Source of the DNA: Lingula anatina
Lineage: Eukaryota; Animalia; Brachiopoda
Reading direction: 5' to 3'
Assembly: GCA_051362555.1 (NCBI GenBank)
Contig: CM120643.1
Coordinates: 26,354,848 to 26,418,847 of the forward strand
Length of the DNA: 64,000 bases
Made by a program: the position numbers and the translations under genes
The notes under the pieces: model-generated
Database searches by the model: none
Told to the model about the DNA's origin: nothing
The model's input: only the letters and a program-made list of their open reading frames with translations
Shown here: one piece after another, positions 3,570-62,392 of the stretch
Layout: each line of letters opens with the position of its first letter
Position numbering within the stretch: the first letter of the stretch is position 1

Positions 3570-3723
3570 CAGTGTGTGCGAGACGCTGACAAGTGAACTT
3601 TAACTTAGACCCTTTTAGTGGCCGTTAAGAGAGCGCTGGGACATATTTTCGGAAAGAGAACGTGCAACAGTGACTGGTTGACGTGGTGAACGTGCTGCCG
3701 AGGATCGATCAGTATTATCAAAG
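3570..3723 (+). other. Candidate non-coding first exon of the RHS gene (start approximate)
   Basis: Strong donor AAG|GTGAGT at 3723/3724 downstream of the motif cluster; pairs naturally with the acceptor at 5878-5879. Confidence 0.5.
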
Positions 3724-5151
3724 GTGAGTTAAAAGGCATCGCGAGACTTGGACATAACTGGGCAGTCCAGCAATAAAGTGTATGGGTAATTCAGCCTTAT
3801 TTTAGTGCACGGAATTTCAGTGATTTATTATGGCGGGATTTTACTTATAAAGCTTGGATTTTGAAACTGTGTCTCATCTGTTTTATCTCATATTTTGTTC
3901 ATAATGTCGCTCATTTTTTGTATATGTCTTGCGCATGAGACATGAGAAATGACAGAATCAATGTCGCCGAAGTGCTCTTGGTTCATTATAAGTGTCTATG
4001 TCGGATGTAGTATTTTGGAGGAGGGGGAGGGGAGGGGAGAGAGACAGAGGGAGAGAGAGAGTCGTTTGCATGTATATCAAATATACTGGGGTAGTTAAGG
4101 GCAATTTTACCACAACATACAGAGCACGGGGATGTAGAAATCGCTTGGTGTAGTCTTGCAGTGTTTAATATACTTTTTACAGAGAATAAGAAGATACGGG
4201 AGAAGGAGGAGGGCTCAAAGGCAAGTGCTCCCCCCCTTTCCCAGGATGTGCCAAATTTGTTTTCATTGACACGTTACTGATATCTGAACGATGTTTATAA
4301 GTGATCATTGAAGTTATTCAAATGTGATCCATAAATGTTGCTGTTTTTTTAATAAAATAATTTAAATATCGAAATTTATCATCAACAGGTGTACGCGTTT
4401 TAGGCTTCCGTTTATGCCACATGTTATGTGCATATGCAAAGGGAAGCGCTTTCCGCATTAGGTTACATTGAAGTAAACAGACTGTAACAGATTAATCACT
4501 GGTAGAATTAAATGCATGCAGTATGCCATGTAAAAGCATTGAAATGTACATAAATATATCTCTTCGTGCGTGGTTATGTTTACTGAACTAAAACATTGTT
4601 GACACACGTATTATTTTGTATTATTGCCTGTGATTGGTCCTGTGCCATTAGTAGGGTTGGGCAAAATTTATGCCCTCCCCCTTTAAATATTCCGTGTCGC
4701 CGCCATATTTATTGTTAATTTATAAGACAAATCAGCTGGCTTACGAGCAGCAATTCAACATATGATGTATAACGGGCATAGCGGTTTAATTTAAACGTCT
4801 CTTTTTTAAATTTTTTAAAATAAATTTTCTTTTATTAGCATTTTTAAAATACTTTTTTCAACTTGTATTGTAAAGTCTACTGAACAAATTTGGATTTTAG
4901 ACTCAAAACAAATATAATATTATTATTCGGATAATTGGGGAAATTATAAAAAAGGAAGAAATTTCAAATCAACATTGCTGGCAAATTTTTAGGCTAGACG
5001 CATCAGCATCGTTTCAGAGGTCATTGGTAACTTTTTTCACAGTCACCAAATCAGTACCCAGTGCATTTTTTTCCATTTGGAAAAAAGATAGGTCCAAAAA
5101 AATCTAATTTACCTGAAGATTGGGGTCTGTGTCGCTCTTTAGCCAGCTTAT

Positions 5152-5348
5152 TCTTCTTCTTCATGTGCCATCACCGATTCGGTGTTTGACGAACGATAAT
5201 ATTCTGCCAAAGGGTTCTATTTCTCGCCCATGACCAAAGGTGTCTTGTTGGTAATTCAAAATTGTCAAGAAGGGACTTTCGATGTCTGCCTCGGGCACTT
5301 TTACCAGGTATTCTACCGCTCAGGCTAAGATCTTCTAATCCCTCTTTA
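5152..5348 (-). mobile_element. 5'-truncated RTE-clade LINE fragment with 27-bp TSD
   Basis: Direct repeat gtctgtgtcgctctttagccagcttat at 5125-5151 and 5349-5375; (GAA)n tail; minus-strand translation EGLEDLSLSGRIPGKSARGRHRKSLLDNF...ARNRTLW resembles the RTE ORF C-terminus. Confidence 0.7.
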
Positions 5349-5400
5349 GTCTGTGTCGCTCTTTAGCCAGCTTATATCTAATGATAAATGATGACCGTAT

Positions 5401-5447
<47 letters not shown>

Positions 5448-5899
5448 TGAACTTCTTTCTGGATAAATCGAGACCGTTCTAATATTGAAACGTGCTTAAA
5501 GTTACTGCTACAAACAAGCATATCTAAATGACACATTATTAGATGATTAAAAAGATAAATATAAAGGTAAAAAAATTAAACAGTCTGTACAGTAATGAGG
5601 AAAATGCTAAGAGAAAATATGTTACAATATGTAACATTTTCACATCATTATAACACTTGAGAAAAAAAAACTATTCATGTTTCAGAATCATCCACTTGCA
5701 TCCCATGTTATAGAAAGCAAATTCTGTTTTAAGAAGAAAATGCGGTTATTAAAACTCCTTAATCACACAATAAATTATTTTTAATCGATTTATCGATCTA
5801 AGTGATTTAGTTTGTATTTTGTTTGTCAAAAAACCTAACGGAGACATATGTACAATAATCTTATTTTCTGTTCTTCTAGATCCACCTCAACCAGCAACC

Positions 5900-8800
5900 A
5901 TGGCAAACAGAATCACTGCCCTGCTTTCGCTGCTGGTGTTCTCCTCTGGTGGAGGAGCCGAATATCTCGTTGGGAATCTTGAGGGAGAGTTGAATGTTGA
6001 TAAAGGCGAGGTCCACTACAAAATCCCGTTAGATTTGCCGCCAGGACCCAATAACATCCAACCAGATCTAGCTATGACCTACAGTAGCGGCGCTGGCAAC
6101 GGTCCTCTTGGTATTGGGTGGGGCTTGTCTTTGGACACCGCCATTGCCAGATGTGGGCTGACGATTGCTCAAGATGGTGAAATTCGTGGCATCCAAAACG
6201 ATCTGACGGATCGTTTCTGCTTGGACGGTCAGCGACTTGTACTTGTGTCAGGGACATATGGTTTAACTGACTCTGAATACAGGACGGAGGTGGACAGTTA
6301 CAGTAAAGTTGTAGCAAAAGGACATCACGGGTTGGGTCCCGACAAATTCATCGTCCACACCAAAGATGGACGGAAACTGACTTTTGGATCGTCCTTCGGC
6401 TCTAAATTGATCGGCAATGGGCAGCAGTGTGTTCATAAATGGTCGATCAGCAGAATTGAAGATAGATTTGGCAATGGAGTGGACATAACATACTCTCAAC
6501 CCGAGACCGAGGCAGGAGTTCTCCACCACATCAGATACGGCACTTCCGTTGTTGAGTTCCAGTACGAACTACGACCAGATAAAACCACCGCTTACCTTCA
6601 AGGAAATATTTTATTTTCACTCACCAAACGCTTAAAGGTGATCAAAGTTTTCAACCAGAACAATCTCATACGGTCTTATAAATATACATATCATCCGACC
6701 GGTTATGGCGGATCGAAACAGTCTGTTCTTACCGCGTTGCACATGTGCGATAGCCAAGACAAATGTTTGAAGCCTCTATCGTTCAATTATGGCAATACCT
6801 TGAACCTTGACTATACCTTTGAAAGGAGTACCCATAAACTGTACAAATACGGCAAAAATTACGGTTGGGAAACAAGCAAACATCCCCGTTTCATTCGAGA
6901 CATGGACGGCGACGGGTTTGCTGACATAGTTGGGTTTCCAAACTACGGGGTCTTCGTCTCACTGAACGATGGCAATGGAGGCTTTAAAACTCCTACGTAT
7001 TGGTCACAAGAGTTCGGTTACACCTCTGGTTGGCGGGTAGAGAACCACCCAAGACATCTGGCGGATGTTGATGGTGACGGTTTGCTAGATGTAGTTGGTT
7101 TTGCAAACGGTGGTGTATATGTGTCATTTAACACTGGTAAAGGACTTAAAAGTTCTAGACACATGACAAGTGCCTTTGGGTATTCAAGGGGCTGGAGGGT
7201 TTCTAACCACCCAAGATTTGTCATGGACATCAACAATGATGGGCGAGCGGACATTGTCGGATTTGCCAACGATGGGGTCTACGTTTCATTGAGCCAAGGA
7301 GATAATTTTGATAGTCCAAAGCTTTGGTCAAATCAGTTTGGTTACACCGCAGGAGGATGGAGAGTTGAAAATCACCCACGATTTCTTCGAGATGTGAACG
7401 GAGACAAGCTTCTAGATGTTGTCGGCTTTGCAGCCGATGGAGTTTACGTTGCACTTAATCTAGGATCATCCTTTGGTCCTGCGCAGAAATGGATAGGACA
7501 GTATGGGTACACAGCAGGCGGATGGAGAACCCAGCAGCATCCACTCTTTGTAGAAGACATCAATGGTGACGGGTTGGCTGATATCATCGGTATGGCTAGC
7601 GATGGCGTTTACGTTTCCTTCAGCACTGGAAAGTATTTTACAACCTCTCGCAAATGGATTGCCGATTACGGCGTGTCCGCCGGAGGTTGGTCAGTAACCG
7701 ATCACCCTCGGTTTCTAAGAGATGTTACAGGGGACGGTCTTTTGGACATCGTAGGGTTCGCCAGCAATGGGATATATGTATCTGAGAACACAGGCGCCAG
7801 TTTTGCTCAGAAAAGACTTTGGATATCGGCTTATGGAAAAACTGCCGGTGGTTGGACAACTGCAGACCACCCGAGACGAGTCGTAGATATAAATGGGGAC
7901 GGTCTTCCAGATATAGTTGGTTTTGCCAACCATGGCGTTTATACGTCCGTAAATAAAAATATGCTCCCCGCTGTGCACGGCATTCAAGACTCTTTGAACA
8001 ACAAAATAAAGATAGAATATTCTCCACTAGGGAAGGCTTTAATGGATGGGGCCTATAAGAGAGACTCTGATGCCGTCTATCCCCAACAAGACGTTGTTTT
8101 GTCCCGTCCTATAGTTAGAAGAGTTCTCAGAGATGATGGAATTGGTGGAGAGGCCAAGAACGTCACCACGTACAAATATGGCGGCTACAAAGTTGACCTC
8201 AGTGGAAGAGGCAGCCTTGGCTACCGCTGGATAGAAGAAACAAATACCAACAGCAAGATACAGTATAACGAATATGAACAATCCTTCCCTCTCACTGGCA
8301 TGCTGAAATCTTCCCGTTTAGATATAGCTGTTAGCAGCGGTGACGTACGGAAAGTGAAGTTAGCCACGTATTCAAATAATGTCACCATATTGTCCTCTGG
8401 TTCCCCTGCAAGACTGGGCGTCTTCCCCTGGACGCAGACCACAGAAAACTGGGACTTAAACTTGAAGTTGGTATCAACGGACGCAACGAGATACGAGAAT
8501 GCAGATGCTTTTGGTAACATCCGTTCAATATTAAGAACAATATCTGGAGACGGAGATGTTTTCGAACAAAAGACAGAAAATGCCTACAATAATAATGCGG
8601 CACATTGGTTAATTGGTCAGTTGATGGAGTCCTCCGTCACCCACTCAACACCAAGTTACTGTGACATGACCAGAAGGACGAAATTCGAGTATGACCAAAA
8701 CAGAGGACAGCTTATCAGAATAAGAAGGGAACCTGACCATGCATTAGAGCTTATGACTGAGTATACATATGATAAATATGGCAACCAGATTGCGCAGTCT

Positions 8801-11800
8801 GAGACTGCCGCCGAGTCCCCGCAACAGAAAAGGACAACGAGGAAGATGTACCAGAGCACTGGTATCTTCCCTGTTGCCACAATCAATGCTATGGGCCACA
8901 ATGAAACCTATGTGTACGATGCTTTTGGTAATCTGGAACGACTGGTTGGTGCAAACGGTCTCATCACCAGCTGGGAATATGACTCACTTGGAAGAAAAGT
9001 ACGTGAAAACCGTGCTGATGGCACATCTACGACCTGGCAGTATTTGTGGGCATCATCTCCCGTGAACGCAGCCTATAAAGTTACCAAACAAGTCAGCGGC
9101 CATGCTCCTGAAACTAAAATATTCGATGCCTTTGACAGAGAAATCCGCAAGGAGAGTCAAGGTTTTAACGGTACCATGATTTATGACGCTGTAGAGTATG
9201 CCTCCGATGGAAACTTGTACAGGGAATCTTTTCCTTACTTCTCTGTTTCTTCCCCAAAGTGGTCAGTATATAAGTATGATCTGTTAGACAGGGTTATCGA
9301 AAAGGAAGAGCCAGCGGGTGATAAGACAGCAATAACGCGGTATGAATATGATGCTCTTGTAACTAAAACCATAGATCCTCTGGGACATGCATCGAGTAAG
9401 AAAACCGATATCCTGGGCCGGGTTGTACAAGTGACTGACAACTTAGGAGGGATGGTCAAGCACCGCTACGATCCTCTGGACAGATTAGTGCAGACAGTAG
9501 ACCCCAATAACTATTCCATCGAAATGGGTTACGACATTTTAGGCTACAAAACATCCATGTCCGACCCAAATATGGGCTCCTGGGAATACCGCCACAATGC
9601 ATTTGGAGAACTGATCTGGCAGAAGGATGCTAACGGCAATGTCCTACAAGAGGAGTATGATTTACTGGGAAGACTGGTTAAGAGGACCGAGCCAGAGGGC
9701 GTGACGACATGGTCCTATGACACAAAGGAGAAAGGAATCGGGAAGCCAGGCCAAATTGACGGACCGGAAGGATTTCACCAGGAATGGGATTACGACGGGT
9801 ATGGTAGGGAAGTTTCCGTGTCGACAGTTTTGAATGGAACAACGCTAACAATGCGTACCACATACGATGCAGCCAGCCGTGTCAATAGCCAGACATATCC
9901 AAACGGAGCCAAGGTTTACCGTTGCTATAATTCAGTTGGCTTGCTTTCCAAGGTTAAGGAGGCTTCTTGCTCTTCAGCTGATACCACAGGGATGATATGG
10001 AAGGCTGTAAACTATGATGCCGCCGGTAGAATACTGGATGAAATTCATGGAAATGGCGTACAGACAAAGTATTCATATGACTCTGGAAACCGTTTGACAG
10101 AAATCCTTTCACGAAACAGACAAGCGCAGAAGATAAGACACAGCCAGTATGTATTTGATGAGAATGATAATTTAGTCAGCAGAAGTGACTTATCCCAAGG
10201 CACTACAAAATCTGAGACATTTTCGTACGACTCCCTTGATCGTCTTACTCGATCTTCTGTTCGTGATCCTGGCAACAGCTATGGCTTCTCCCAAAACTGG
10301 CAGTACGACGAGTCGGGAAATATACTTTCTAATGACGAGTTGGGACTTAACCACTTTCAGTATGACCCCTCAAGGCCGAACGCTGTCATCAGGGCGGGAA
10401 ACCACACCTATCAATACGATCAAAACGGCAACGTTATCAGGAAGGACGGGATTCACATCCGGTGGACTTCGTACAACAAACCAACTTCTTTTAACACAGC
10501 CTCTGGCCAGGTTGTGTTTAAATACGGTCCAGACAGAAGCAGATACCTCAAGATCAACCACGCCGGTGATAGAGTTGTCTATTTTGGAAAGCTTTACGAG
10601 CACCATACCGATTCGAAAGGCAGCAAGGCTGATGTTTTCGTTTACGGCCCAATGGGGAGATTATTGGCCATAAAGTCCACGAAGAAATTTAAAACTGGGG
10701 AAACCAACACCACCTCCTTTGTTCACAGTGACTATATGGGCTCCATAGATACACTGACGAGTCCTTCCGGGTCGGTGTTAGAACGTCTCAGCTACAACGC
10801 TTTTGGGAAACGGCGAGCGGGAGACTGGAGACAACGTCAGTCGGTGCGTCCTACCACTACCCAGCGAGGATACACGGGTCACGAGCACGTTGACGAACTG
10901 GGACTTATTCACATGAACGGGCGTGTCTATGACCCAGATGTTGGGCGTTTCTTAAGCCCTGACCCTCATATTCAGGACCCTTACGACACCCAGTCCTTCA
11001 ACAGGTACACATACGCGCGCAACAACCCCCTCAAGTACAAGGATCCAAGTGGTTTCTTTTTCAAAAAGATCTTTAGATCAGTTAAAAAGTTTGTTAAGAA
11101 GTACTGGCGTCCCATAGTAGCAGTTGCTGTATCCGCCTTAACATTTGGTGCTGCGACGCCGTACGCTGCTGCCTTTATTGCGGCTAATACAGCGTTGACC
11201 GGGACCGCAGCCGCCGTGGCCAGTGGTGTTCTCGCGGGAGCGGCATCTGGCTTCGTAGGAGGAGTGGTAAGCACGGGGAACGTAAAAGGCGGCCTGCAAG
11301 GAGTGGTCGGGGGCGCAATATTTGGAGGCGTGGGCGGCTACTTCGGGAGCACTTGGAACATACAAAGGGTGGCAAGTCAGGCGGTCGCCGGTGGAACCGT
11401 GAGTGAGTTAACCGGTGGTAAATTCGTGGACGGTTTTGTTATGGCAGGCGTAACCGCGACTTCGAGATATCTCTACAACAAGTGGGTTTCGTATGATGTG
11501 ACTTGGAAGAAAGGATCTCCATCTCGTTATAAGTGTGCAAGCTGCATGCCTGTTAAAGGGATGAACAACATCGGCACTCAGGGCGAAAAACCGGACACTT
11601 CGTGGTTTAAGGGGTGGAAGCCGAACTTTCAAGAGGGCGGCGGACTCAGTCGGGCCCTTAACAGGGTACCGGGTATCAACGCTGTCTCTGGACTACATGA
11701 CGTGTTCCAGGTTAAACTGGACCGCGTTCCGTTCTCCGTGGGAGGCGTGGGTGCACGTGACATTTTCAACGTTCCCGGCATGCCCGTTGCTGCTGTCATT

Positions 11801-11878
11801 ACGTACGCAGGGTTACTGGACGGTCCACAGTCGGCCGCTTTGATAATTGACGAGAGCAAGAAGAAGGAAGGTGGATAA
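5900..11878 (+). CDS. Secreted RHS/YD-repeat toxin-like protein (SpvB/TcB-like N-term, 7x FG-GAP/PVL-lectin repeats, TcdB midN-like region, RHS core, C-terminal cargo), 1992 aa
   Basis: Uninterrupted ORF; polypyrimidine+AG acceptor at 5878-5879 then Kozak gcaaccATGg at 5900; hydrophobic leader MANRITALLSLLVFSSGGGA; IPLDLPPG...YSSGAGNGPLGIGWGLS (SpvB-like); many YD..GR repeats; RHS core RGYTGHEH...HMNGRVYDPDVGRFLSPDP...NPLKYKDPSG. Confidence 0.93.
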   Translation: MANRITALLSLLVFSSGGGAEYLVGNLEGELNVDKGEVHYKIPLDLPPGPNNIQPDLAMTYSSGAGNGPLGIGWGLSLDTAIARCGLTIAQDGEIRGIQNDLTDRFCLDGQRLVLVSGTYGLTDSEYRTEVDSYSKVVAKGHHGLGPDKFIVHTKDGRKLTFGSSFGSKLIGNGQQCVHKWSISRIEDRFGNGVDITYSQPETEAGVLHHIRYGTSVVEFQYELRPDKTTAYLQGNILFSLTKRLKVIKVFNQNNLIRSYKYTYHPTGYGGSKQSVLTALHMCDSQDKCLKPLSFNYGNTLNLDYTFERSTHKLYKYGKNYGWETSKHPRFIRDMDGDGFADIVGFPNYGVFVSLNDGNGGFKTPTYWSQEFGYTSGWRVENHPRHLADVDGDGLLDVVGFANGGVYVSFNTGKGLKSSRHMTSAFGYSRGWRVSNHPRFVMDINNDGRADIVGFANDGVYVSLSQGDNFDSPKLWSNQFGYTAGGWRVENHPRFLRDVNGDKLLDVVGFAADGVYVALNLGSSFGPAQKWIGQYGYTAGGWRTQQHPLFVEDINGDGLADIIGMASDGVYVSFSTGKYFTTSRKWIADYGVSAGGWSVTDHPRFLRDVTGDGLLDIVGFASNGIYVSENTGASFAQKRLWISAYGKTAGGWTTADHPRRVVDINGDGLPDIVGFANHGVYTSVNKNMLPAVHGIQDSLNNKIKIEYSPLGKALMDGAYKRDSDAVYPQQDVVLSRPIVRRVLRDDGIGGEAKNVTTYKYGGYKVDLSGRGSLGYRWIEETNTNSKIQYNEYEQSFPLTGMLKSSRLDIAVSSGDVRKVKLATYSNNVTILSSGSPARLGVFPWTQTTENWDLNLKLVSTDATRYENADAFGNIRSILRTISGDGDVFEQKTENAYNNNAAHWLIGQLMESSVTHSTPSYCDMTRRTKFEYDQNRGQLIRIRREPDHALELMTEYTYDKYGNQIAQSETAAESPQQKRTTRKMYQSTGIFPVATINAMGHNETYVYDAFGNLERLVGANGLITSWEYDSLGRKVRENRADGTSTTWQYLWASSPVNAAYKVTKQVSGHAPETKIFDAFDREIRKESQGFNGTMIYDAVEYASDGNLYRESFPYFSVSSPKWSVYKYDLLDRVIEKEEPAGDKTAITRYEYDALVTKTIDPLGHASSKKTDILGRVVQVTDNLGGMVKHRYDPLDRLVQTVDPNNYSIEMGYDILGYKTSMSDPNMGSWEYRHNAFGELIWQKDANGNVLQEEYDLLGRLVKRTEPEGVTTWSYDTKEKGIGKPGQIDGPEGFHQEWDYDGYGREVSVSTVLNGTTLTMRTTYDAASRVNSQTYPNGAKVYRCYNSVGLLSKVKEASCSSADTTGMIWKAVNYDAAGRILDEIHGNGVQTKYSYDSGNRLTEILSRNRQAQKIRHSQYVFDENDNLVSRSDLSQGTTKSETFSYDSLDRLTRSSVRDPGNSYGFSQNWQYDESGNILSNDELGLNHFQYDPSRPNAVIRAGNHTYQYDQNGNVIRKDGIHIRWTSYNKPTSFNTASGQVVFKYGPDRSRYLKINHAGDRVVYFGKLYEHHTDSKGSKADVFVYGPMGRLLAIKSTKKFKTGETNTTSFVHSDYMGSIDTLTSPSGSVLERLSYNAFGKRRAGDWRQRQSVRPTTTQRGYTGHEHVDELGLIHMNGRVYDPDVGRFLSPDPHIQDPYDTQSFNRYTYARNNPLKYKDPSGFFFKKIFRSVKKFVKKYWRPIVAVAVSALTFGAATPYAAAFIAANTALTGTAAAVASGVLAGAASGFVGGVVSTGNVKGGLQGVVGGAIFGGVGGYFGSTWNIQRVASQAVAGGTVSELTGGKFVDGFVMAGVTATSRYLYNKWVSYDVTWKKGSPSRYKCASCMPVKGMNNIGTQGEKPDTSWFKGWKPNFQEGGGLSRALNRVPGINAVSGLHDVFQVKLDRVPFSVGGVGARDIFNVPGMPVAAVITYAGLLDGPQSAALIIDESKKKEGG
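6845..7960 (+). repeat. Seven ~55-aa protein repeats (beta-propeller, FG-GAP/VCBS-like, PVL-type)
   Basis: Consensus FGYxxGGWRVxxHPRFxxDxxGDGxxDIVGFAxxGVYVSxN counted seven times in the translation. Confidence 0.9.
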
Positions 11879-12002
11879 ATGAATGACCTTTTTTGTTTGT
11901 TATAGACACCTAAGGACGAGGAATACGATTCTGAAAAAGACAAGTCATTATTCAGAGGCGCAGTTGTGTTATTAACCGGGATTTCGTGTTTTATCATCAG
12001 TT

Positions 12003-12008
12003 AATAAA
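12003..12008 (+). terminator. Candidate polyadenylation signal of the RHS gene
   Basis: AATAAA 125 nt after the stop; further AATAAA at 12328 and 12334. Confidence 0.5.
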
Positions 12009-12367
12009 TCTGATTTCAATGGTGCTGTTAAACACTGTTAGTGCGCCTTTAGATTAGATTAGCATTTTTACACCTGTGGTGAATCTGAATGTGGACATAT
12101 CTATAAAAATCTAGATATATTTTCAAAAACACGGAGGCGGACTTACATTGTAATGTTAGCCTAAGCTAGTTTTGTCCTGAAACATAAAGAAACATTATCG
12201 GCTGAAACAATTCATTGTCCAGAAAGCCAAACTGTGTCAACATTCGGGATTTTTTCCCTTTGTCAACACCTGCTTATTCTGCCCTTAACGGCTTAGTTAT
12301 ATATGCGCCTTTGAAGTTAGTAAATGTAATAAAAATAAAGCATACATTAAGTGTGTTAATTTTTTAA

Positions 12368-12560: not shown

Positions 12561-12904
12561 AATAATAAATCGCTGCCTTCTTTCTTTTCAGCTTTCGATA
12601 AAAACACTTTAAACAGTAGAAGTACTCATAACACCACGACAAAACGTGGAATCGTGGAAATACTGTCTTCAAGATAGCAAAAAAATAATCATGAAATTGT
12701 CCTGGATTTAAATTATCTTTACGCTTTTCTGAGAAAATCTAACCTTGTATAAACAACGCTTTGTTAAACGGCAGCACAGCGCAAAAGATTGAAAATGGAG
12801 AGATTTGTTTCAAATATCGGTGCATCATAATTGAATTCGTGTAACAGGAGTACCCTCCGTAACAGGAATAGAAGTCCACTAGGAACCGTGTCCGCTTCTC
12901 ATTA

Positions 12905-13879
12905 GGCCACACTTTTTTATTTTTATGGATGACATCCTCTGGGTACCCCAAAATCGGTGCGAGAGGGCGAAAAAAAAAAACAGTCCAAAAAAAAAAAAAA
13001 ACTGCTTAAGTAAAGGAATGCTGTCAGTACACAGCTGGAAACACAAATTTAACCACAGAAACACGTATCAAACTAACAATATGTCTTTATCCATGCTCTC
13101 AAAATATTAAAGCACTGTGAATACTTCGTAGAAATGTTAAAAAAAAGTCATGAATTGATATACTTCATATTACCAAATCTATTTAAGGTTATTTCATGCA
13201 TTTATTTGGTATAGCAATCAATAAAACAAATATCAATCAAACAGTGTGTCTTTATTTGTATTCTCAGAATATTAAAACATTTTGAACACTTCACAGAAAT
13301 GTTTAAAAAATGATGCAAAGATATGCTTAATACTACCAAATCTATTAAAGGTCATTTCAGACGATGCCATTTTGTCAACTTCAACTCACACGAAGCAGCT
13401 AAACTGTCAGGTGGCCTGTCCGACCTTCAGTCCACCAAATACCTCGACGCCCCTTGTCGACCCTTTTTTCGCTACAGAAAACCTGGTATTAATGTGCTGC
13501 TTTAAACAGAATGTCACAGAAATGTTTCGGCCGCCGCCAGCCTTTCGCACAATTGTAAAAAGGTGATATCTCCATGCCCAATATCAACGGCATACCAATC
13601 CAAAACGATGGCGCCTGTTCTCTTTATGACTTTTATTGTTGTGTAATTTGAAAGTAATCCTAGAGATGAATTTGACAGCAAAGTGGCCGCATTTCCACGT
13701 TGCGAAAATACGCATGCGCAGAAAGCTCATTTCCTTGCAAATTCAATAACAACGTTTGCGACAACCGACTTCGTTGGGGGCTGGGGGGGGGCTTTTTTTT
13801 TTTTTTGTTTTTTTTTGGAGAACGGGCGAAAATCCATGCGCGCGCAGGATGTCATCCATAAAATTAAAAAAGTGTGGCC
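12905..13879. mobile_element. PIF/Harbinger-type non-autonomous element
   Basis: ~33-bp TIRs ggccacacttttttatttttatggatgacatcct / aggatgtcatccataaaattaaaaaagtgtggcc; TTA TSD at 12902-12904 and 13880-13882. Confidence 0.8.
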
Positions 13880-15144
13880 TTACTTCGTATAGGTGACATC
13901 TACCACCACCCCCCCCCCCAAAAAAAAAAGGGGGATTTAACGAGAGAAGCGAAAGAAAAATCGCGTGTAGAATCAATTGGTAATACCATCGTAGCATGAC
14001 GTCATCTAAATGCACACGCTTCGTCCTGACTATCTTTCTACGCCGAGGAAGGTGTCCTATGTCTTTGAGATAAGCCAGTATAGTCAATAATCCATAGCAC
14101 AGAGGACACAGAAATGATGACTTCAACTATCTATCTTAATTTCCAGGCGGTGTCCTGGTCAAAACTCAGGGTCTGGGCGCGTGATGCGGGGTGGAAAAAA
14201 CCCTTATGACACCGCGTCGATTAAAATGTACAAGTCAAGGAACAAACGATTATTCATTATTAGAGCAGGAGTCTCATCTGCGTGCCACTTGCTTCCTGGT
14301 TCGGAAAAAAGGGCAGTGCGTCTCTGAGACGTACGAACGTGCTCCTGCCCGCCGCCGGCACAAATCTCAGGTGAAACGATTTCAGCATTTTTGCCGAATT
14401 TTAGAATAACATTTTGAAAAAAAAATATCTACAAGGGACATGTTTCTTTTGCTGTGTGGAGATTGCGCTTACTTTTACATTATAAATATATTTGAGCAAA
14501 TTTGAAGACCAGTAGTCATTTACTATCTAGGGACAATGAATCTCGAATCGAATCTTTCAAAATTAAGTCTGCGGCAGAAATAAACCTCGGGGATTGTGGT
14601 AGTTGTGCTGGTTGCGCTGAGAAACACTCGGTCTAACCAGGGAATTATATCCGATATAATTCCCTGGTCTAACCAACGAGGTACAACAGATATACCTCTT
14701 TGGGCTAACACATTTACTTAGAAGACTAGATTAACGCATACATTGCCCGTTTGACCTATATGCATAGCCAAATAAATTTTCTTTGATATTTCACGATTTT
14801 TACTTTATCGCCAAGGCGTTTCCCCACACCCTAACTAAAACCAAAGTAGATGTGTTTAAAAAAAGATGAGTGCACAATTAGACAAATTGATGAATTCGGG
14901 TTAAAGGTTATCAGCTTTAAAACTACGACTATCCAGAAACTAGTTTAGTTATTGAACACGTCACCCACTCTAGGCGCCGTTATCTACAACTGATTTACTT
15001 ACCAGGGGCAGATGTGTCACGCACCTTGTAACGATATCTTTTTTTCATAGTGAAACAACCACAAGTATAACAATTAAATGGCATATATACAGGTAATTGA
15101 TGGTTAATTACATCTTTACAGTAGATCTTCATAAATGCATCAGT

Positions 15145-23985: not shown

Positions 23986-24079
23986 CCAGCACACAGGAGG
24001 AGTACCGTATGATGGTAGACGGCCTCCGATACCTCAGTGAAGATACACAGTCAGGGCCCTATCCACTACAGGTTGAAAG
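23986..24079 (+). CDS. PLCG1: PLC-gamma exon 3
   Basis: ASTQEEYRMMVDGLRYLSEDTQSGPYPLQVER; acceptor tttccag, donor GTAAGG. Confidence 0.92.
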
Positions 24080-25160
24080 GTAAGGGTGGGGGTATAGTGA
24101 TTACCTCAGTCAGTACACACAGTCAGGGCCCTACCCACTACAGGTTGAAAGGTAAGGGTGGGGGTATAGTGATTACCTCAGTCAGTACACATAGTCAGGG
24201 CCCTATCCACTACAGGTTGAAAGGTAAGGGTGGGGGTATAGTGATTACCTCAGTCAGTACACATAGTCAGGGCCCTACCCACTACAGGTTGAAAGGTAAG
24301 AGTGGGGGTATAGTGATTACCTCAGTCAGTACACATAGTCAGGGCCCTACCCACTACAGGTTGAAAGGTAAGGGTGGGGGTATAGTGATTACCTCACTCA
24401 GTACACACAGTCAGGGCCCTACCCACTACAGGTTGAAAGGTAAGGGTGGGGGTATAGTGATTACCTCACTTAGTACACACAGTCAGGGCCCTATCCACTA
24501 CAGGTTGAAAGGTAAGAGTGGGGGTATAGTGATTACCTCAGTCAGTACACACAGTCAGGGCCCTACCCACTACAGGTTGAAAGGTAAGGGTGGGGGTATA
24601 GTGATTACCTCACTCAGTACACACAGTCAGGGCCCTACCCACTACAGGTTGAAAGGTAAGGGTGGGGGTATAGTGATTACCTCACTCAGTACACACAGTC
24701 AGGGCCCTACCCACTACAGGTTGAAAGGTAAGAGTGGGGGTATAGTGATTACCTCAGTCAGTACACACAGTCAGGGCCCTACCCACTACAGGTTGAAAGG
24801 TAAGGGTGGGGGTATAGTGGTTACCTCACTCAGTACACACAGTCAGGGCCCTACCCACTACAGGTTGAAAGGTAAGGGTGGGGGTATAGTGATTACCTCA
24901 CTCAGTACACACAGTCAGGGCCCTACCCACTACAGGTTGAAAGGTAAGGGTGGGGGTATAGTGATTACCTCAGTCAGTACACACAGTCAGGGCCCTACCC
25001 ACTATAGGTTGAAAGGTAAGGGTGGGGGTATAGTGATTACCTCAGTCAGTACACACAGTCAGGGCCCTACCCACTACAGGTTGAAAGGTAAGGGTGGGGG
25101 TATAGTGATTACCTCAGTCAGTACACACAGTCAGGGCCCTACCCACTACAGGTTGAAAGG
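24030..25160 (+). repeat. 72-bp minisatellite, ~16 copies, unit spans the exon 3 / intron junction
   Basis: Unit tacctcagtcagtacacacagtcagggccctacccactacaggttgaaag|gtaagggtgggggtatagtgat. Confidence 0.97.
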
Positions 25161-25286
25161 TATTGGTGTGGGTCTTACACAGGACAATTAAATCAAGATA
25201 ATTTTGCTGTAGCCCTCACACCTAGAATTCCAAGAAATATGTCTGTGTGGTTAATTAAAATTAGTTGTTTTTCTTTATTCTTCTAG

Positions 25287-42599: not shown

Positions 42600-44687
42600 C
42601 TAGTGTAAGTACTGAAATGTCTTAACTTGGCCTTCCTGTTCTGCCACCACCAGCTGGCCAGCAGGGTTGATGGCTAATGCTTTCGGAGACTCTAACCCAT
42701 CATCCTTAGTGGCAATGTATCTGATAAAATGTCCGTGTGGACTCAGTGCCACTATCCTGTGGTTAAGAAGATCAGCAATGAAGATGTGGCCATAGCTGTC
42801 TGTACACACTCCATGAGGTGCACACAGCTGACCATCACCACTGCCATATCTGCCATACTGGTACAGCAGACCACCAGTAGGTGACAGCACATGTACACAA
42901 TGTCTGCTCAAATCTGATATTGCAATGTTATCATTCACACTGTTCACTGTGATGTACACTGGGTATTTACACATACTGAGTGGAATAGCGTCCAGGAGCT
43001 GTCCACTGTCTGCATGGAATGTTAAGAAAGATTTCTTTGAGCTGTCACAAACTATCACATTACCTTGTCTGTTCAGTGTAATACCACGTGGCTCATCCAG
43101 TTGACCCTGAACCATGGTTGTCACCTGCTGACCTCTGGTGGAGAACACTTGGACATATCTGTCAATCTGTGATGCAATATACAGGAGACCAGTCTGTGAC
43201 ACAGCCACATCAAACGGTCTGTTTACTATAATGCCATACTTGAAATTTCCAGCATGTGTGAACATCTTTGTTCTGTTTTCTCCTTGATACACAACAAACA
43301 CATGTCCTTCGTTTATGGCTAACCCAGTCAAGGACATTGTTCTGTCATCTTCTAGCTTGGTACTAAAAGAACGCACACACTTTGCCTTCTCTAAGAAAAT
43401 GGGAGGATGTGGTGCTGATCTTGGATTTGCTCGCTGTCCAGCTAATGGAGATTTTGTCTGTATTGTCACCTGCCCTAACATGGCTTCCTGTTCGGGAGGA
43501 TTTGGTGCTGATCTTGGATTCATTGCCTGTCTAGCTAACGGAGATTGTGACTGCACTGTTACCTGTCCTAACGTGGCTTCCTGTTCGGGAGGATTTGGTG
43601 CTGATCTTGGATTTATTGCCTGTCTAGCTAACGGAGGTTGTGACTGTACTGTCACCTGTCCTAACATGGCTTCTAGTCCAGGAGAACTTGGTGGTCTTGG
43701 ATTTGTTCCATGTCTCCCTAATGGAGGTTGTAACTGTACTGTCACCTGTCCTAACATGGCTTCTAGTCCAGGAGAACTTGGTAGTCTTGGATTTGTTCCA
43801 TGTCTCCCTAATGGAGGTTGTGACTGTACTGTCACTTGTCCTAACATGGCTTCCAGTCTGGCAGCAGATATCTTACCAGGGCTGTATGATATCTGTGCTG
43901 GTGTATCTAGAGTTGGGACAGGTGCTTTCTCCATCTCTGCCAGTCTTTCTATCAGAGGTTTTGTGTGAACCATGATATCAGAGTCAGTGCCATTTGTGAT
44001 CAGTTGAAAGGCAAAATCACAGGCGTTGTGTAACAAGACATGGTGGAGTGTATGGGTATATTTGTTTGCTCCCATCTGCCTCTGTCTGCTATCGCAAACA
44101 GAATTCACTTTTGATATCAGTGTCTCTTTCCTCTCATTGATCAGCCGGACAATTTGCTCAGCTTGGTTTTTAATCTCATTGATTGTGACAGTTCTGTTAT
44201 GAGAGTCCTCTGTGTCATTGGTTGTTTCCATGGCAGCTGCTTCTTTAAACCTGATCGACGTTTTCATAGTTTTTACAAGAGCAGTTTTAATTTTATCTCT
44301 GTTGCTATTTGCAAGTTGATCAACTAATGAAATACGATGTCGGCCATGTTCGGTTGCTATACACTGTCTACATATAGCGGTATCATCATCTTCACAGTAG
44401 TATTCTAATTCATTTTCATGGTGTTTCTTACAACTGATGGTCATTTGTGCATTGGCAAAATTATTTTTCAGTCGAGTAAATCCGCTAGCTTGAAACTGGG
44501 TCTCTTCTCTACAAATAGGACACAGAAATGTCTCACTTGGAGAGAGAAATCTTTGGGCATGGTCAGATATACAACCATTGCAAAAAGTATGGTAGCAAGG
44601 CAGTATACAGAGGTCCTTATACTCTTTCAGACAGATGCTACATGTTAAGAGATTATCTGTGAAAGCTGTTGCTAGTGCTTCTGCCAT
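42600..44687 (-). CDS. Intronless TRIM-NHL E3 ubiquitin ligase (TRIM2/3-like), 695 aa, nested antisense in PLC-gamma intron 14
   Basis: RING CSIC...LPCYHTFCNGC...CPIC; B-box CKKH...YYCEDDDTAICRQC...H; coiled coil; NHL repeats (GSGDGQLCAPHGVCTDSYGHIFIAD). Confidence 0.92.
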   Translation of the reverse strand: MAEALATAFTDNLLTCSICLKEYKDLCILPCYHTFCNGCISDHAQRFLSPSETFLCPICREETQFQASGFTRLKNNFANAQMTISCKKHHENELEYYCEDDDTAICRQCIATEHGRHRISLVDQLANSNRDKIKTALVKTMKTSIRFKEAAAMETTNDTEDSHNRTVTINEIKNQAEQIVRLINERKETLISKVNSVCDSRQRQMGANKYTHTLHHVLLHNACDFAFQLITNGTDSDIMVHTKPLIERLAEMEKAPVPTLDTPAQISYSPGKISAARLEAMLGQVTVQSQPPLGRHGTNPRLPSSPGLEAMLGQVTVQLQPPLGRHGTNPRPPSSPGLEAMLGQVTVQSQPPLARQAINPRSAPNPPEQEATLGQVTVQSQSPLARQAMNPRSAPNPPEQEAMLGQVTIQTKSPLAGQRANPRSAPHPPIFLEKAKCVRSFSTKLEDDRTMSLTGLAINEGHVFVVYQGENRTKMFTHAGNFKYGIIVNRPFDVAVSQTGLLYIASQIDRYVQVFSTRGQQVTTMVQGQLDEPRGITLNRQGNVIVCDSSKKSFLTFHADSGQLLDAIPLSMCKYPVYITVNSVNDNIAISDLSRHCVHVLSPTGGLLYQYGRYGSGDGQLCAPHGVCTDSYGHIFIADLLNHRIVALSPHGHFIRYIATKDDGLESPKALAINPAGQLVVAEQEGQVKTFQYLH
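43401..43856 (-). repeat. Five 30-31-aa coding repeats in the TRIM linker
   Basis: LEAMLGQVTVQSQPPLGRHGTNPRLPSSPG-like unit x5. Confidence 0.93.
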
Positions 44688-49120: not shown

Positions 49121-52100
49121 CTATATGTTTTGATTTGCTATACTCATTAAAGTAGATTTAAGTTCCGGTTTAAGTAGCAATCTAGAATTTAATTTAGTAC
49201 TTTTGAAAATAAAAAATTTAGAATGAAGAATTACAAGGTTTTTAACTTTATCGCTACTTCCAAAAATGAGATCAGATGGCAGTATTTTGAAGACATTTCC
49301 TGTAATTTGGCTTAACCATAGTTCAACCTCTGTCCAGAAGAGCTTCACTAATTCACAGTCCATAAATAGATGCTTTATCGTTTCAGCCTGTTTGTTGCAC
49401 AAACTACAAAGAGGATTCTCGATCATATGGTATTTAAACAGCAACTCTTTGGTACCCAAAATTCTGTGGATTATTCTGAAATTAAACCATTTCAATCTTA
49501 TTTCTTTAACTTTAACCAGGGCATTGGTATATGTTAGTTGCCAGTCTATTTTGATACCTAACTCTTGTTCCCATTTTTCTTCACATTTTGGTCTCTGACC
49601 GAGACTTTTTATGCAAATGTCATATATGCTTCTACATCCTTTTTTATCGTTACATAATGTTTTAACTGGGTTAGAGATCTGCGGTAATGGCAACATAACG
49701 TTAGCATTCAGAAGTCTAAGCACAGGGTAGGCACCAAAGGTTGCTTGCCTTAATCCATAATACAGAGTAAAAGGAATCTGAATTTCAAACTCTTCTACAA
49801 AATAGTCAAATGATAGGAATTTCCCTTCGCTGTTAAATAAATCTTGGATAATATGGAAACCTTTGTCATACAAATTCTTATAAAAAATTCTTCTGCCATC
49901 TGATAATACAGCAGGATTATACCAGATTGGAGTTCTGAGAATGACATCGAGACTATTACTTGCCATTTTTTCTGAATATTCTGAAAAGTATATTAAGATT
50001 TCTCTCCAAAAAGAATTGCGAATTTTAGATATTTCCTTTGCATAAGTTGGTCCAAACTGAGTCAATCTCTGAACATCCGATCCAGTGGCTTCAGCAAAAA
50101 GTTTATTTGTTATTTTATCAGAGGTTATCAATCTGCGAATCCAGGAAATTTTTAGTGCCCTCACAAAGGATTCTAAATGTATCATACGGCAACCTCCCTG
50201 TTTATAGTCCTGAATAAGTGTTTTACGGGCAACTTTTTCTGTTTTACCGTGCCAAATAAATTTGAATAGCATATTTTGTAAATTTTGCAGCCACTCTTTG
50301 GTAGGGCTCGGAAGAGAGAGCAGTAGGTGTGTTATTTTTGAAATAATTAAAGACTTCACTACAGTAATCTTACCTAAAGTAGTAATATTTCTTTTTCCCC
50401 ACCGATACATTTCTAATTCTATTTGCTGAAGCTTGCTGGTATAATTCAACTCATTCATTTGTTCTAAATCAGCTGTGAAAACTATACCTAATATATTAAA
50501 AGGGTTGTTAGTCCATTTAAGATTGTTATCTTTACAGATAATTTCTCTACTGTTGGCCTTTGAACCAATCCATATGGCTTTAGTCTTACTAATATTGGGC
50601 TTAAGCCCTGAGTACTTGGAAAACTGAAACAGTAAGTCGAGTGCACTCTTTAAACTTTTCTCTGAGCCATCTAAAAAAAGCACTGTGTCATCTGCGTACT
50701 GAGATAGTTTTACTTCCACCCTCCCCAAGTTTATTCCTGTTATGTTATTGTTTTGTCTTATAAGAATAGCTAGGATCTCAACACATAAATTAAAAATGTA
50801 GGGTGATACAGGGTCTCCCTGTCTGCAGCCTCTGCCAATTTTAAAGAAATTAGAGAAAATACCATTTTGTATTACACATAATTCAGGATCATTATATAGA
50901 ACATTTATCCATTTTTTAAAGTCATCACCAAAATTAAAAAACGAGAGAGTTTTTTTCATAAAATCCCAAGATATGCTATCAAATGCTTTAAGGAAATCTA
51001 CTGAGAGTATCATTCCTGGGATTTTTTTATCTTTTGTAATTTGCAAAACATCATAAACAATTCTAGTATTCTCACCAATGAACCGTCCTTTCAAAAATCC
51101 CGTTTGATTTTCATGTATAAGCAAATGTAAAACTTTTTTTAATCTATTTGAAATACAAGCAGAGAGGATTTTATATGAGATGTTTAAGAGAGATATCGGC
51201 CTCCAATTTTCTAAAAATTCCCGTGGTTTATCCCCTTTGGGTAAAATTGAAATAACCCCTTGTTTCTGGGTAATGGACAAGTGACCTTTAGCAAACCCCT
51301 TATTATATGATCTCACAAGAAACGTTCCTATATCATTCCAGAAAAATTTAAAAAATTCGACAGAAAAACCGTCGGGGCCAGGTGATTTGTTGTTCTTCAT
51401 ACTTTTTAAGGCTATTAGAGCTTCCTGATAAGTAATTGTTCCCTCTAATTGCCTAGCCGTATTGTCATCTAATATGTTTATTTTGTCTTTATCGATTATA
51501 TTATTCCAATCAAAAATTTCAGAGTAGTTATCTTGTTTCGAGTAAAGATGGTTATAGAAATCTCTGATTTCTTTCAAAATTTCTGCTTGATCGGTAATAA
51601 TACGGCCTGGCTCCCTTATAATTTTCTTTACAGTTTTATTTACAAAATTTCTTTTTTCCAGGGATAAAAAATATTTAGTTGGTTTTTCCCCTTCCTCTGA
51701 CCATTTTACTTTGGTTCTTATATAGACCCCTCTAATATGTTCATGTCTCATTTCTTCTTCCTCTAGTTTCAGAGTCTGGAGCTGGTTTTCTAAATTCGAT
51801 GTGGGGTTATCTGTATACATGGAATATAATTTCTTAATTTTTTCAGCCAGGGTCTTCATTCTTATATTTTTCTCCTTTTTCTTTGCTGAACTATAGGCAA
51901 TGGTATAGCCTCTAACCTGTAATAATATCTGTTCAAAAAATGCTTGCTCATCCACAAGAAAGTCCAGATCATTGTCACTAATTTTACATAACTCTGCTTT
52001 GTTATATGGACTGGCACAATATTGATATTTTAGATCCTCTATTATTTTCTTTACTCCTCTTATATACTCAAAATCTTTTAGAAGGCTGTTATTCATTTTC

Positions 52101-52843
52101 CAGAAACCTTTCCCTTTTTTCTGCTCAGAGAGAGTAAGTTTCAGGTGTATCATTGCGTGGTCTGTTCGGTATCCATAAGTTATCTCAGTTTGATCAACAA
52201 GATTCATGAGTTCGTTAGAAATAAGGAAAAAGTCAAGCCTAGCTCTTTTTACAGGGTTATTAGAGGACCAAGTGAATTGTTTCCTCTGTTCATGTTGAGC
52301 TCTCCATGGGTCTATCAAATTGAATTTAGTTTTCAGCCGTAAGAGAGCATCTCTTGCTTGGGGATTATTAACACGTCTGTAATTATAATAATCTAAATCA
52401 CTATCTTGAACTAGGTTAAAGTCCCCCATCATTATCACAAAGTGACCCTCAAAATCTTCTATGATATTTCCGAGGTGAACAAAAAATTCCGGGTCATCTT
52501 TGTTTGGTCCATACAAATTAATAAGTAAAACAGAGTAATTATTTTCAACTTCAATTTCGATAATCAAATAATTTCCATCTTTTCCGAACAACGTTCTCAT
52601 TATTTTAAATTCAAAGTTATTGTTGAAAAGGATTGCGGTACCTCTTGAATTTGATTTGCCAGGGCTCAGAAGGGTTTTATATCCCCACAAGGAATGTACT
52701 TTTGATCTGTCCCTCTCTGTAAAGTGGGTATCTTGGATACAATATATTGAGTATTTCTGTTGTTTCAAATAGTTCAGGACGTCTCTTCTCTTTTGAGTAC
52801 CTCCAAGACCCCTACAATTCAAACTAACGATATGCAAACTCAT
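49121..52843 (-). CDS. LINE ORF2p: AP endonuclease, reverse transcriptase, C-terminal zinc finger (1240 aa)
   Basis: SLNCRGL, GDFN, RLDFFL, TDH; KSPGPDG, WRPISLLN, DFLKAFD, GCRQGDPVSP, YADD; CSLC...ETIKHLFMDC. Confidence 0.96.
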   Translation of the reverse strand: MSLHIVSLNCRGLGGTQKRRDVLNYLKQQKYSIYCIQDTHFTERDRSKVHSLWGYKTLLSPGKSNSRGTAILFNNNFEFKIMRTLFGKDGNYLIIEIEVENNYSVLLINLYGPNKDDPEFFVHLGNIIEDFEGHFVIMMGDFNLVQDSDLDYYNYRRVNNPQARDALLRLKTKFNLIDPWRAQHEQRKQFTWSSNNPVKRARLDFFLISNELMNLVDQTEITYGYRTDHAMIHLKLTLSEQKKGKGFWKMNNSLLKDFEYIRGVKKIIEDLKYQYCASPYNKAELCKISDNDLDFLVDEQAFFEQILLQVRGYTIAYSSAKKKEKNIRMKTLAEKIKKLYSMYTDNPTSNLENQLQTLKLEEEEMRHEHIRGVYIRTKVKWSEEGEKPTKYFLSLEKRNFVNKTVKKIIREPGRIITDQAEILKEIRDFYNHLYSKQDNYSEIFDWNNIIDKDKINILDDNTARQLEGTITYQEALIALKSMKNNKSPGPDGFSVEFFKFFWNDIGTFLVRSYNKGFAKGHLSITQKQGVISILPKGDKPREFLENWRPISLLNISYKILSACISNRLKKVLHLLIHENQTGFLKGRFIGENTRIVYDVLQITKDKKIPGMILSVDFLKAFDSISWDFMKKTLSFFNFGDDFKKWINVLYNDPELCVIQNGIFSNFFKIGRGCRQGDPVSPYIFNLCVEILAILIRQNNNITGINLGRVEVKLSQYADDTVLFLDGSEKSLKSALDLLFQFSKYSGLKPNISKTKAIWIGSKANSREIICKDNNLKWTNNPFNILGIVFTADLEQMNELNYTSKLQQIELEMYRWGKRNITTLGKITVVKSLIISKITHLLLSLPSPTKEWLQNLQNMLFKFIWHGKTEKVARKTLIQDYKQGGCRMIHLESFVRALKISWIRRLITSDKITNKLFAEATGSDVQRLTQFGPTYAKEISKIRNSFWREILIYFSEYSEKMASNSLDVILRTPIWYNPAVLSDGRRIFYKNLYDKGFHIIQDLFNSEGKFLSFDYFVEEFEIQIPFTLYYGLRQATFGAYPVLRLLNANVMLPLPQISNPVKTLCNDKKGCRSIYDICIKSLGQRPKCEEKWEQELGIKIDWQLTYTNALVKVKEIRLKWFNFRIIHRILGTKELLFKYHMIENPLCSLCNKQAETIKHLFMDCELVKLFWTEVELWLSQITGNVFKILPSDLIFGSSDKVKNLVILHSKFFIFKSTKLNSRLLLKPELKSTLMSIANQNI

Positions 52844-61970: not shown

Positions 61971-62140
61971 GGAGTATCAAATGAAGAGTTGCACTTCAGT
62001 GAAAAGTGGTTTCATGGGAAGCTTGAGGGTGGGCGACGTAGAGCGGAGGAGCTATTGAACGAGTACGCAGTCCTCGGCGACGGCACATTCCTAGTTCGAG
62101 AAAGCGACACATTTGTCGGTGATTTTTCCCTCTCCTTTTG
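61971..62140 (+). CDS. PLCG1: PLC-gamma exon 18a (N-SH2 first half, canonical)
   Basis: [57 protein letters not shown]; 170 nt, phase 0-2. Confidence 0.96.
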
Positions 62141-62222
62141 GTAAGTCCCAGCGCCCTCGTTGTCTCCCCTTTCTTCCTAGCATGGCATGGAGTTTGACAC
62201 TGTGTATTAATGTTACCCTTAG

Positions 62223-62392
62223 GTTAGGGAATTGCATTTTTCCGAAGAGTGGTACCATGACTATATTCGAGGAAACGGGTCACGCCAGACCGCTGAGAGC
62301 CTCTTGATTCAGTGGGGACCTGCTAAAGGCGACGGAACTTTCTTGGTCCGCCATAGCAAGGAGTTTGTGGGTAGTTTTACTCTGTCGTTTTG
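62223..62392 (+). CDS. PLCG1: PLC-gamma exon 18b (alternative N-SH2 first half, mutually exclusive candidate)
   Basis: [57 protein letters not shown]; cccttag acceptor, GTATGT donor, 170 nt, phase 0-2, no stops. Confidence 0.85.

Follow-up and report, generated by a model that had tools for sequence, protein, structure and literature searches.

The 64,000-nucleotide stretch of contig CM120643.1 of the brachiopod Lingula anatina analysed here (the window) carries at positions 5900-11,878 an open reading frame (ORF) whose product of 1992 amino acids (aa) is laid out like a bacterial Rhs toxin, with a lectin propeller, a YD-repeat shell, an RHS core and a C-terminal cargo. This raises the question of whether the ORF belongs to the animal, where it came from and what its product does. 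We found that it is a genuine, spliced and transcribed host gene of bacterial Rhs origin. As judged from its domains and relatives, the product is a domesticated Rhs toxin, and the chances that it works as a secreted, lectin-tipped antibacterial capsule appear evenly balanced.

Transcription and host status of the gene

Reads of six RNA runs and one DNA run were mapped to the window. The ORF was transcribed in four of the six RNA runs and in two of the three studies. In X15 and X16 it was covered from end to end and nearly all first mates lay on the minus strand, as expected of sense RNA in most stranded libraries. A polyA+ transcript was also found, as the oligo-dT libraries X18 and X19 cover the ORF. 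The rough expression level was 14, 5 and 18 reads per kb per million in X15, X16 and X19, respectively. Zero reads fell on the ORF in X12 and X13 (polyA, 12.4 million records each), a result in which tissue, stage and absence of the gene are indistinguishable.

The coding sequence (5900-11,878, plus strand, as for all parts of the gene below) is a single stop-free exon from the ATG at 5900 to the TAA at 11,878. The start stands in the Kozak context proposed for it in the initial annotation, with A at -3 and G at +4. The acceptor AG at 5878-5879, likewise proposed from the letters, is in use: five reads of X15 and four of X16 join it to 3692-3721, which is followed by the donor AG|GTGAGT. Because these reads jump from 5878-5880 to 3692-3721 ahead of the donor, we assigned a 5' untranslated region (UTR) intron of 2156 nt (GT..AG, 3724-5879), inside which RNA depth is almost nil, and a non-coding exon 1 with its 3' end at 3692-3723, where the loose read ends from 5878/5880 match 3692-3721. 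The X16 consensus differs by two letters at this joint. No splice joints were found inside the coding region in the four RNA runs, so the 6-kb ORF is intronless as first described, but the gene is not. The 3' UTR (12,003-12,339) contains the expected polyA signals, with AATAAA at 12,003, 12,328 and 12,334; in X15 and X16, RNA reads extend beyond 12,100, and in X19 the depth drops near 11,950. The product is 99% identical to L. anatina XP_013381439, annotated as uncharacterised. Among the coding variants shown, the best supported 40 of about 400, 30 were synonymous and 10 non-synonymous, and the ratio of non-synonymous to synonymous polymorphism (pN/pS) was about 0.10.

The possibility that a bacterial contaminant contig was fused into the assembly is, in our estimate, negligible. 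It would fit an intronless ORF that is richer in GC than its surroundings; the more balanced composition noticed at the outset was confirmed (GC 47.7% versus 34-36% in the flanking kilobases), and GC at third codon positions (GC3) is 48.7% versus 36% in a TRIM gene of the same window. It would also fit the lack of any contig or long read joining the ORF to PLC-gamma, a link that the initial annotation had proposed as a check: exons of this neighbour were confirmed at 36.1, 37.7 and 62.0 kb, at least 24 kb away. The canonical splice to an upstream exon and the host-like DNA depth (81-91 over the ORF versus 48-84 over flanking unique pieces) already refute a chimeric contig, and the sense-strand and oligo-dT reads speak against it as well. 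So do the presence of the gene's stretch in 10 DNA runs from four studies under a single organism label, its occurrence in an earlier RefSeq annotation on an 883-kb scaffold, and the location of relatives on 27- and 37-Mb sequences.

Relatives of the gene and its origin

A sequence search returned 823 matches. Among the 120 listed, the top 11 showed 41-99% identity and included the nemertean Tubulanus polymorphus, the annelid Owenia fusiformis and the sea anemones Actinostola sp. and Exaiptasia diaphana; those listed below them did not exceed 37%, and the named ones were bacterial. A search with the cargo gave 969 representatives at E 0.001, including proteins of Paulinella chromatophora and P. 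micropora. Each named species had one copy in these searches.

In trees of the shell, the animal group was recovered with a FastTree support of 1.0 (71 rows) and with 99/100 (26 rows). A 211-row tree, made from 289 blastp hits of 316 candidates after dropping those with fewer than 600 aligned residues, contained a clade of 26 rows (support 0.994) that adds both Paulinella proteins and one further record; many of these rows are assumed, rather than demonstrated, to be eukaryotic. With IQ-TREE (21 rows), the eukaryotic clade received 100/99, and next to it, at 100/99, stood the nearest sampled shells, from metagenome-assembled genomes (MAGs) of Desulfobacterales and Chromatiales. A cysteine pair, C1342/C1357 (9923-9970), predicted to form a disulfide, is private to the clade (23 of its 26 rows versus 0 of the 185 others). 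In a cargo tree of 60 rows, the eukaryotic rows formed one branch (support 84), together with one outside row. Judged by these trees, the eukaryotic homologues are one clade nested in bacteria. The gene was not placed in any described animal family, and the earlier proposal of an independent transfer into this lineage was not supported, since nemertean, annelid, two sea anemone and two Paulinella homologues share the clade.

The gene tree contradicts the animal phylogeny. Owenia and the sea anemones were grouped at 100/100, and the Owenia shell is 62% identical to that of Actinostola, 58% to Exaiptasia, 43% to Tubulanus and 38% to Lingula. Forcing Lingula, Tubulanus and Owenia together, as expected from the species tree, made the tree 102 log-likelihood units worse (approximately unbiased test, p-AU 0.00017, 12 rows) in a test run post hoc, with the tree already seen. 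A constraint uniting the animals without Paulinella was weakly rejected (p-AU 0.026; quick tree, long branches).

The single most economical history, which we favour and to which we give a little less than half of the weight, is one transfer from a bacterium to a eukaryote followed by movement between eukaryotes, for example between cnidarian and annelid and between animal and Paulinella. The single clade with its private cysteine pair, the closeness of Owenia to Actinostola rather than to Lingula, the rejection of lophotrochozoan monophyly, the weaker rejection of animals without Paulinella and the branch uniting eukaryotic cargos all point this way. Such movement would have to be accepted from just seven named eukaryote species, with long Paulinella branches, and no mobile-element vector was found around the gene or among viral contigs, nor any terminal repeats enclosing the gene. 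The other histories carry, taken together, half of the weight: an ancient acquisition that was duplicated early and then lost very many times, or repeated transfers from an unsampled donor group, prokaryotic or viral, that already had the cysteine pair. The identity of 38-45% inside the clade implies great age, several clade records bear no taxon name, and the bacterial collections were scanned in part (13 of 64 and 15 of 64 parts), which leaves room for a closer donor outside the sample. These histories require losses in the majority of animals and of eukaryotes and unusually slow change between Owenia and the anemones; moreover, no bacterial sequence lay inside the clade, either among the 185 other rows or among the 289 blastp hits above the first 21.

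Several records deserve a separate remark. L144 (61% over a short stretch) and L021 proved to be ordinary bacterial Rhs proteins. A contig of the viral collection (L163:2466-8459) codes for a 1998-aa Rhs protein with a PVL-type propeller (E 3e-107) and lies outside the eukaryotic clade. The Paulinella members P0169 and P0183 keep the protease triad and the tip; their propeller has diverged, SpvB is unmatched, and one has a DUF7495 insert. The Exaiptasia annotations P0009 and P0144 diverge upstream of one residue, where P0006 begins, a pattern suggestive of a coding intron that this subclade has and Lingula lacks. The Actinostola model P0004 lacks about 45 shell residues and continues into an unrelated PF05721 domain, probably through a gene-model error.

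Layout of the protein and gene neighbours of its tip in bacteria

The initial annotation had read the protein as a signal peptide followed by SpvB, an FG-GAP propeller, midN, YD shell and RHS core. The hydrophobic N-terminus was confirmed (about residues 1-20, 5900-5959; peak of 2.4 in an 11-residue window) and is found likewise in five full-length relatives; the signal peptide is predicted from hydrophobicity. Pfam and NCBIfam supported an SpvB-like domain (residues 35-208, 6002-6523; PF03534 E 1.7e-11), FG-GAP_3 (E 3.7e-25), a TcdB_toxin_midN region (residues 628-791, 7781-8272; PF12256 E 5.5e-10), a YD/RHS repeat shell (about residues 850-1630, 8447-10,789; PF05593 and TIGR01643, RHS_repeat E 2.4e-38) and an RHS core (10,793-11,053; TIGR03696, Rhs_assc_core at residues 1632-1718, E 8e-20). 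The shell matches solved Rhs, TLP and Tc shells at E 3e-23 to 7e-11. No animal-type domain added to the protein was found with Pfam.

The propeller itself turned out to be of the PVL/AAL2 lectin type, with seven repeats of about 55 aa (about residues 310-692, 6827-7975). Among solved structures it comes closest to the fungal lectins AAL2, PAL and PVL (E 4e-90 to 7e-83; 4tqj 4e-90, 5mb4 9e-89, 2bwm 2e-88). The Gly-Trp of the pocket, the His and an acidic loop motif are kept in all seven repeats. AAL2 binds N-acetylglucosamine (GlcNAc) via Asn104, Trp112, His117 and main-chain atoms and requires the Asn/Asp, which bonds O3/O4 in six sites (PMC4483166). That residue is present in one of seven repeats in Lingula and in none to two in named relatives with seven matched repeats. 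A putative acetyl pocket is plausible because Trp and His are complete; given the scarcity of the Asn/Asp, GlcNAc is no more than a candidate ligand. PVL-type propellers occur in bacterial Rhs proteins too, and therefore the lectin arrived together with the gene.

The core contains the autoprotease residues R1675, D1688 and D1715, and this Arg-Asp-Asp triad was present in 18 of 18 clade members checked. Catalytic Arg-Asp-Asp residues are described for BiTLP (R2103/D2116/D2140; PMC13018210) and for SGS1 (PMC9935623). By homology, the Lingula protein likely cuts itself just after the DPSG motif and frees a cargo of about 273 aa.

The cargo consists of two parts. Part 1 (residues 1719-1856, 11,054-11,467) is a cationic amphipathic helix, with a net charge of +7 and a hydrophobic moment of 0.71, followed by Gly/Ala-rich helical hairpins with 35% Gly+Ala; the cargo model is helical, with a predicted local distance difference test score (pLDDT) of 79. 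In seven of seven proteins examined, the cargo opens with an amphipathic helix of +4 to +7, and then contains 31-41% Gly+Ala. Part 2 (residues 1857-1992, 11,468-11,875) is a tip domain of about 135 aa with a conserved H1933-D1934. In an alignment of 154 tips, taken from 162 matches among 315 stored proteins chosen by likeness to the Lingula tip, the His was present in 154 and the Asp in 153, and the Lingula tip retains the residues common to bacterial tips. Eukaryotic members with a complete end have a single cargo type, not variable tips, whereas the tips of bacterial relatives vary. Because the bacterial helical module also bears diverse other tails (70 tails in 9 clusters), the tip occupies the variable toxin slot.

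Database searches assigned no family to the tip: neither it nor the lipoprotein described below had a match in Pfam, NCBIfam or PDB. Ribose-5-phosphate isomerase (E 0.5-0.9) and a PepSY protein (E 1.6) were chance matches, and ESM Atlas matches to bacterial toxin-tail clusters (scores 0.76-0.81, chance level) are leads only. A fold search with the cargo model gave nothing at E 0.001 in PDB or viral libraries. The weak best neighbours were glycine-zipper membrane proteins, SlyB (Z 6.5, 46 residues) and Tim22/23 (Z 5.8), and the top Z of 6.5 in the wide search is in the range of common helical arrangements. A phospholipase A2 (PLA2)-like His-Asp toxin was considered as a lead. There were zero PLA2 rows in the fold and family lists of the tip, but matches to the long first helix took up the fold lists, and the model of the tip by itself had a pLDDT of 36. 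No tip was found in viral contigs or plasmids. The 1.8-billion library was searched with a single cargo sequence, and tip relatives at a great distance could have escaped this search.

Among 193 sources (loci and the window), the tip profile matched the Lingula window, 13 intact bacterial ORFs and one degenerate ORF. Directly 3' of 10 of the 13 intact ORFs (8 genomes or contigs) lies a lipoprotein gene, whose products of about 90-130 aa, with a hydrophobic leader ending in Cys, form a single family. Five members made the first profile and five were found later (E 3e-27, 1e-10, 3e-6, 1e-5 and 0.011). The first profile had one weak match elsewhere (L156, E 0.007); the final one had no other match among 24,569 ORFs (195 with Rhs cores), and no match that would mark an immunity gene was found in the Lingula window. 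A rule-based lipobox count gave 4/7 versus 16/141 by ORF (Fisher p 0.007) and 5/11 versus 15/137 by locus; the rule missed two members later assigned to the family. In one genome, two tip-lipoprotein pairs stand in tandem, arranged like toxin cassettes. The predicted complex of a bacterial tip with its lipoprotein, made without alignments, scored 0.00 and is no guide to whether the two bind.

Where immunity proteins are anchored by a lipid, the toxins that they counter usually act on membranes or in the periplasm. The pairing suggests a toxin-immunity pair acting outside the cytoplasm, with the lipoprotein in the immunity role, and the presence of a cognate lipoprotein suggests that the toxin can strike the bacterium that makes it. 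Immunity genes of Rhs toxins have this standard form, a small cognate gene placed behind the tip (PMC3417536), and the idea of lipid-anchored immunity is echoed for L,D-peptidase toxins (PMC3482391).

The tip-lipoprotein pair is unannotated, spans several bacterial groups (L113, L082, L093, L094, L037, L167, L173 and L196-L198) and merits its own description. Records bearing it include Candidatus Sororendozoicomonas and Candidatus Porisulfidus, which we take to be coral and sponge associates.

Proposed function and neighbouring features

In the mechanism that we favour among those considered, the protein would be secreted via its predicted signal peptide, the propeller would dock the capsule onto N-acetylated sugars and the YD shell would shield the cargo. 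The core would then cut itself and free the cargo, whose helical part may enter the bacterial membrane and whose tip may damage the envelope, at a target presumably on the periplasmic side. As this target would be bacterial, the animal would need no immunity gene. A signal peptide, SpvB, an integrin-like propeller and RHS together make up the layout of TcdB/TcaC-class polymorphic toxins (PMC3482391). Antibacterial toxins were domesticated in other cases, namely Dae4 in Nematostella (PMC8713801) and Dae2 in ticks (bioRxiv 2020.04.10.036376). The analogy with these interbacterial toxins turned to eukaryotic antibacterial defence is one of function: they are small single enzymes of assayed activity, with no cage, lectin or self-cleavage.

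A number of observations weigh against an antibacterial capsule. A pN/pS of about 0.1 carries no arms-race signature, and the cargo is better conserved than the shell (54-63% versus 38-39% identity to the named animals). Asp replaces the His in two more distant bacterial tips, and the Asn/Asp needed by AAL2 is nearly absent from the propeller. Three of the 13 tip ORFs lack the lipoprotein family; behind two of these stand unrelated lipoprotein-like genes, and behind the third another gene whose product looks secreted. The animal tip is also far from the bacterial pairs examined. A lipoprotein partner is no proof of an envelope target either, as Imm65, a lipoprotein, goes with Tox-JAB-1, which is listed among nucleic-acid toxins (PMC3482391). 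Finally, the cargo would have to leave the shell without an injector of the TcA type.

Some of these points would suit a protein repurposed as teneurins were (PMC13018210) into a non-toxic secreted lectin, matrix or signalling protein, with the cage and cargo being structural or a released signal. We consider this unlikely, although it agrees with strong conservation of the cargo across phyla, the low pN/pS, the one copy per named species in the searches and expression confined to some of the libraries. The protease motif has disappeared from teneurins (PMC13018210, PMC9935623), whereas the triad is complete throughout the clade members checked here; the tip preserves the bacterial residues and no animal-type domain was gained. 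The patchy spread in unrelated marine eukaryotes also seems to suit an optional defence gene better than a developmental one. Still less probable is a toxin used as venom or in defence, directed at predators, at prey or at eukaryotic parasites; its propeller would attach to animal cells through GlcNAc or sialic acid, and its helical cargo would form pores. PVL does bind glycans of animal cells (PMC4456360), and the cage of SGS1, which is secreted in saliva, holds predicted membrane helices (PMC9935623). The carriers include sea anemones and a nemertean. Both groups are known for venoms or toxins; Lingula and Owenia, however, feed on suspended or deposited matter, and Paulinella is an amoeba. 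The searches showed no expansion into paralogues, and the cognate lipoprotein suggests that the producer bacterium is among the targets. The venom reading put forward in the initial annotation found no support; in bacteria, the genes around the cargo indicate a bacterial target.

Among known systems, TcdB/TcaC-class Rhs toxins share the whole layout, the protease motif, the helical pre-toxin module and the tip, at 30-37% identity over most of the length. The Lingula gene differs in being a spliced eukaryotic gene, with a cargo fixed across the clade, the extra cysteine pair and no adjacent immunity gene or spare cassette within the window. The protein descends from this class, yet fails two of its defining features, variable cargo and an adjacent immunity gene. 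The B-C cocoon of Tc/ABC toxins (TcdB2-TccC3, YenB/YenC) has the same SpvB-like N-terminus, propeller, midN, shell and aspartyl autoprotease, with a weak sequence match (6sup E 2e-14; YenB residues 9-80 only); unlike it, the Lingula protein has a predicted signal peptide and a different cargo, and no TcA partner was found among window ORFs of at least 150 aa. The fungal lectins PVL, AAL2 and PAL (2bwm, 4tqj and 5mb4) have the same repeats and acetyl-pocket residues; in Lingula the propeller is embedded in a 1992-aa protein and mostly lacks the AAL2-essential residue.

Teneurins are animal proteins with a YD shell of bacterial origin, and teneurin-like proteins (TLPs) are their bacterial counterparts (PMC13018210); TLP shells match that of Lingula at E 9e-20 and 5e-17. 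The Lingula protein has no transmembrane helix and no EGF, FN-plug, NHL or Tox-GHH match (Pfam, E 0.01); its N-terminal part is a seven-repeat lectin propeller and its protease motif is intact, and no animal teneurin was present among 23 PDB matches. The mosquito protein SGS1 is also a Rhs/YD cage of bacterial origin, with propellers, an Arg-Asp-Asp autoprotease and a predicted membrane-helix cargo; it has 3364 aa, no classical signal peptide and an arthropod-specific Tox-SGS end (PMC9935623). The Lingula match to SGS1/SGS4 (PDB 9on3) is confined to core residues 1657-1721 (E 2e-5), and its tip is of the bacterial kind, with no match to Tox-SGS or another Pfam family. On these comparisons, the Lingula protein is neither a teneurin, as initially stated, nor an SGS protein.

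Domestication as such is already known, both of YD cages (teneurin, SGS) and of antibacterial toxins (Dae2, Dae4). No published description of this eukaryotic Rhs family was found in the literature searched, whose coverage leaves subscription papers and supplements largely aside. Rhs is not mentioned in the accessible main text of the Lingula genome paper (PMC4595640), the Paulinella genome paper (PMC7826189) or PMC8713801; their supplementary gene-transfer lists may include the family. The broadest reading of our data, which we offer as tentative and rather unlikely in its entirety, is that a complete bacterial weapon, including an undescribed envelope toxin, entered eukaryotes once, spread sideways among a brachiopod, a nemertean, an annelid, anemones and an amoeba, and is still an innate antibacterial device. 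If so, this would be the third domestication of an RHS/YD cage after teneurins and SGS, and the sole one with the original payload. In those two the job of the cage changed, the teneurin protease and nuclease having decayed and SGS having swapped its toxin; here purifying selection preserves the whole device, bacterial-type cargo included, in a protist and several marine phyla. As Exaiptasia carries the gene, the family offers a tractable model of the stage preceding cage repurposing. It also provides a candidate for a new innate-immune effector, a toxin-immunity pair not described before and a strong case for possible gene transfer between eukaryotes that are only distantly related.

Further features were noted in the window. 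Just 3' of the gene lies a high-copy element resembling a miniature inverted-repeat transposable element (12,904-13,880), with 35-bp terminal inverted repeats that are 97% complementary. A minisatellite of 16 copies of a 72-bp unit (24,030-25,173) is overlain by a 384-aa ORF that is likely spurious. Between the PLC-gamma exons, on the minus strand, lie the RING/B-box/NHL (TRIM-NHL) gene, a single ORF of 695 aa with a 93-bp tandem repeat (42,600-44,687), and an intact ORF of 1240 aa resembling a long interspersed nuclear element, with endonuclease, reverse transcriptase and zf-RVT domains (49,121-52,843). Two adjacent, similar, SH2-like exon-sized ORFs of PLC-gamma (61,971-62,399, plus strand) may be alternative exons.

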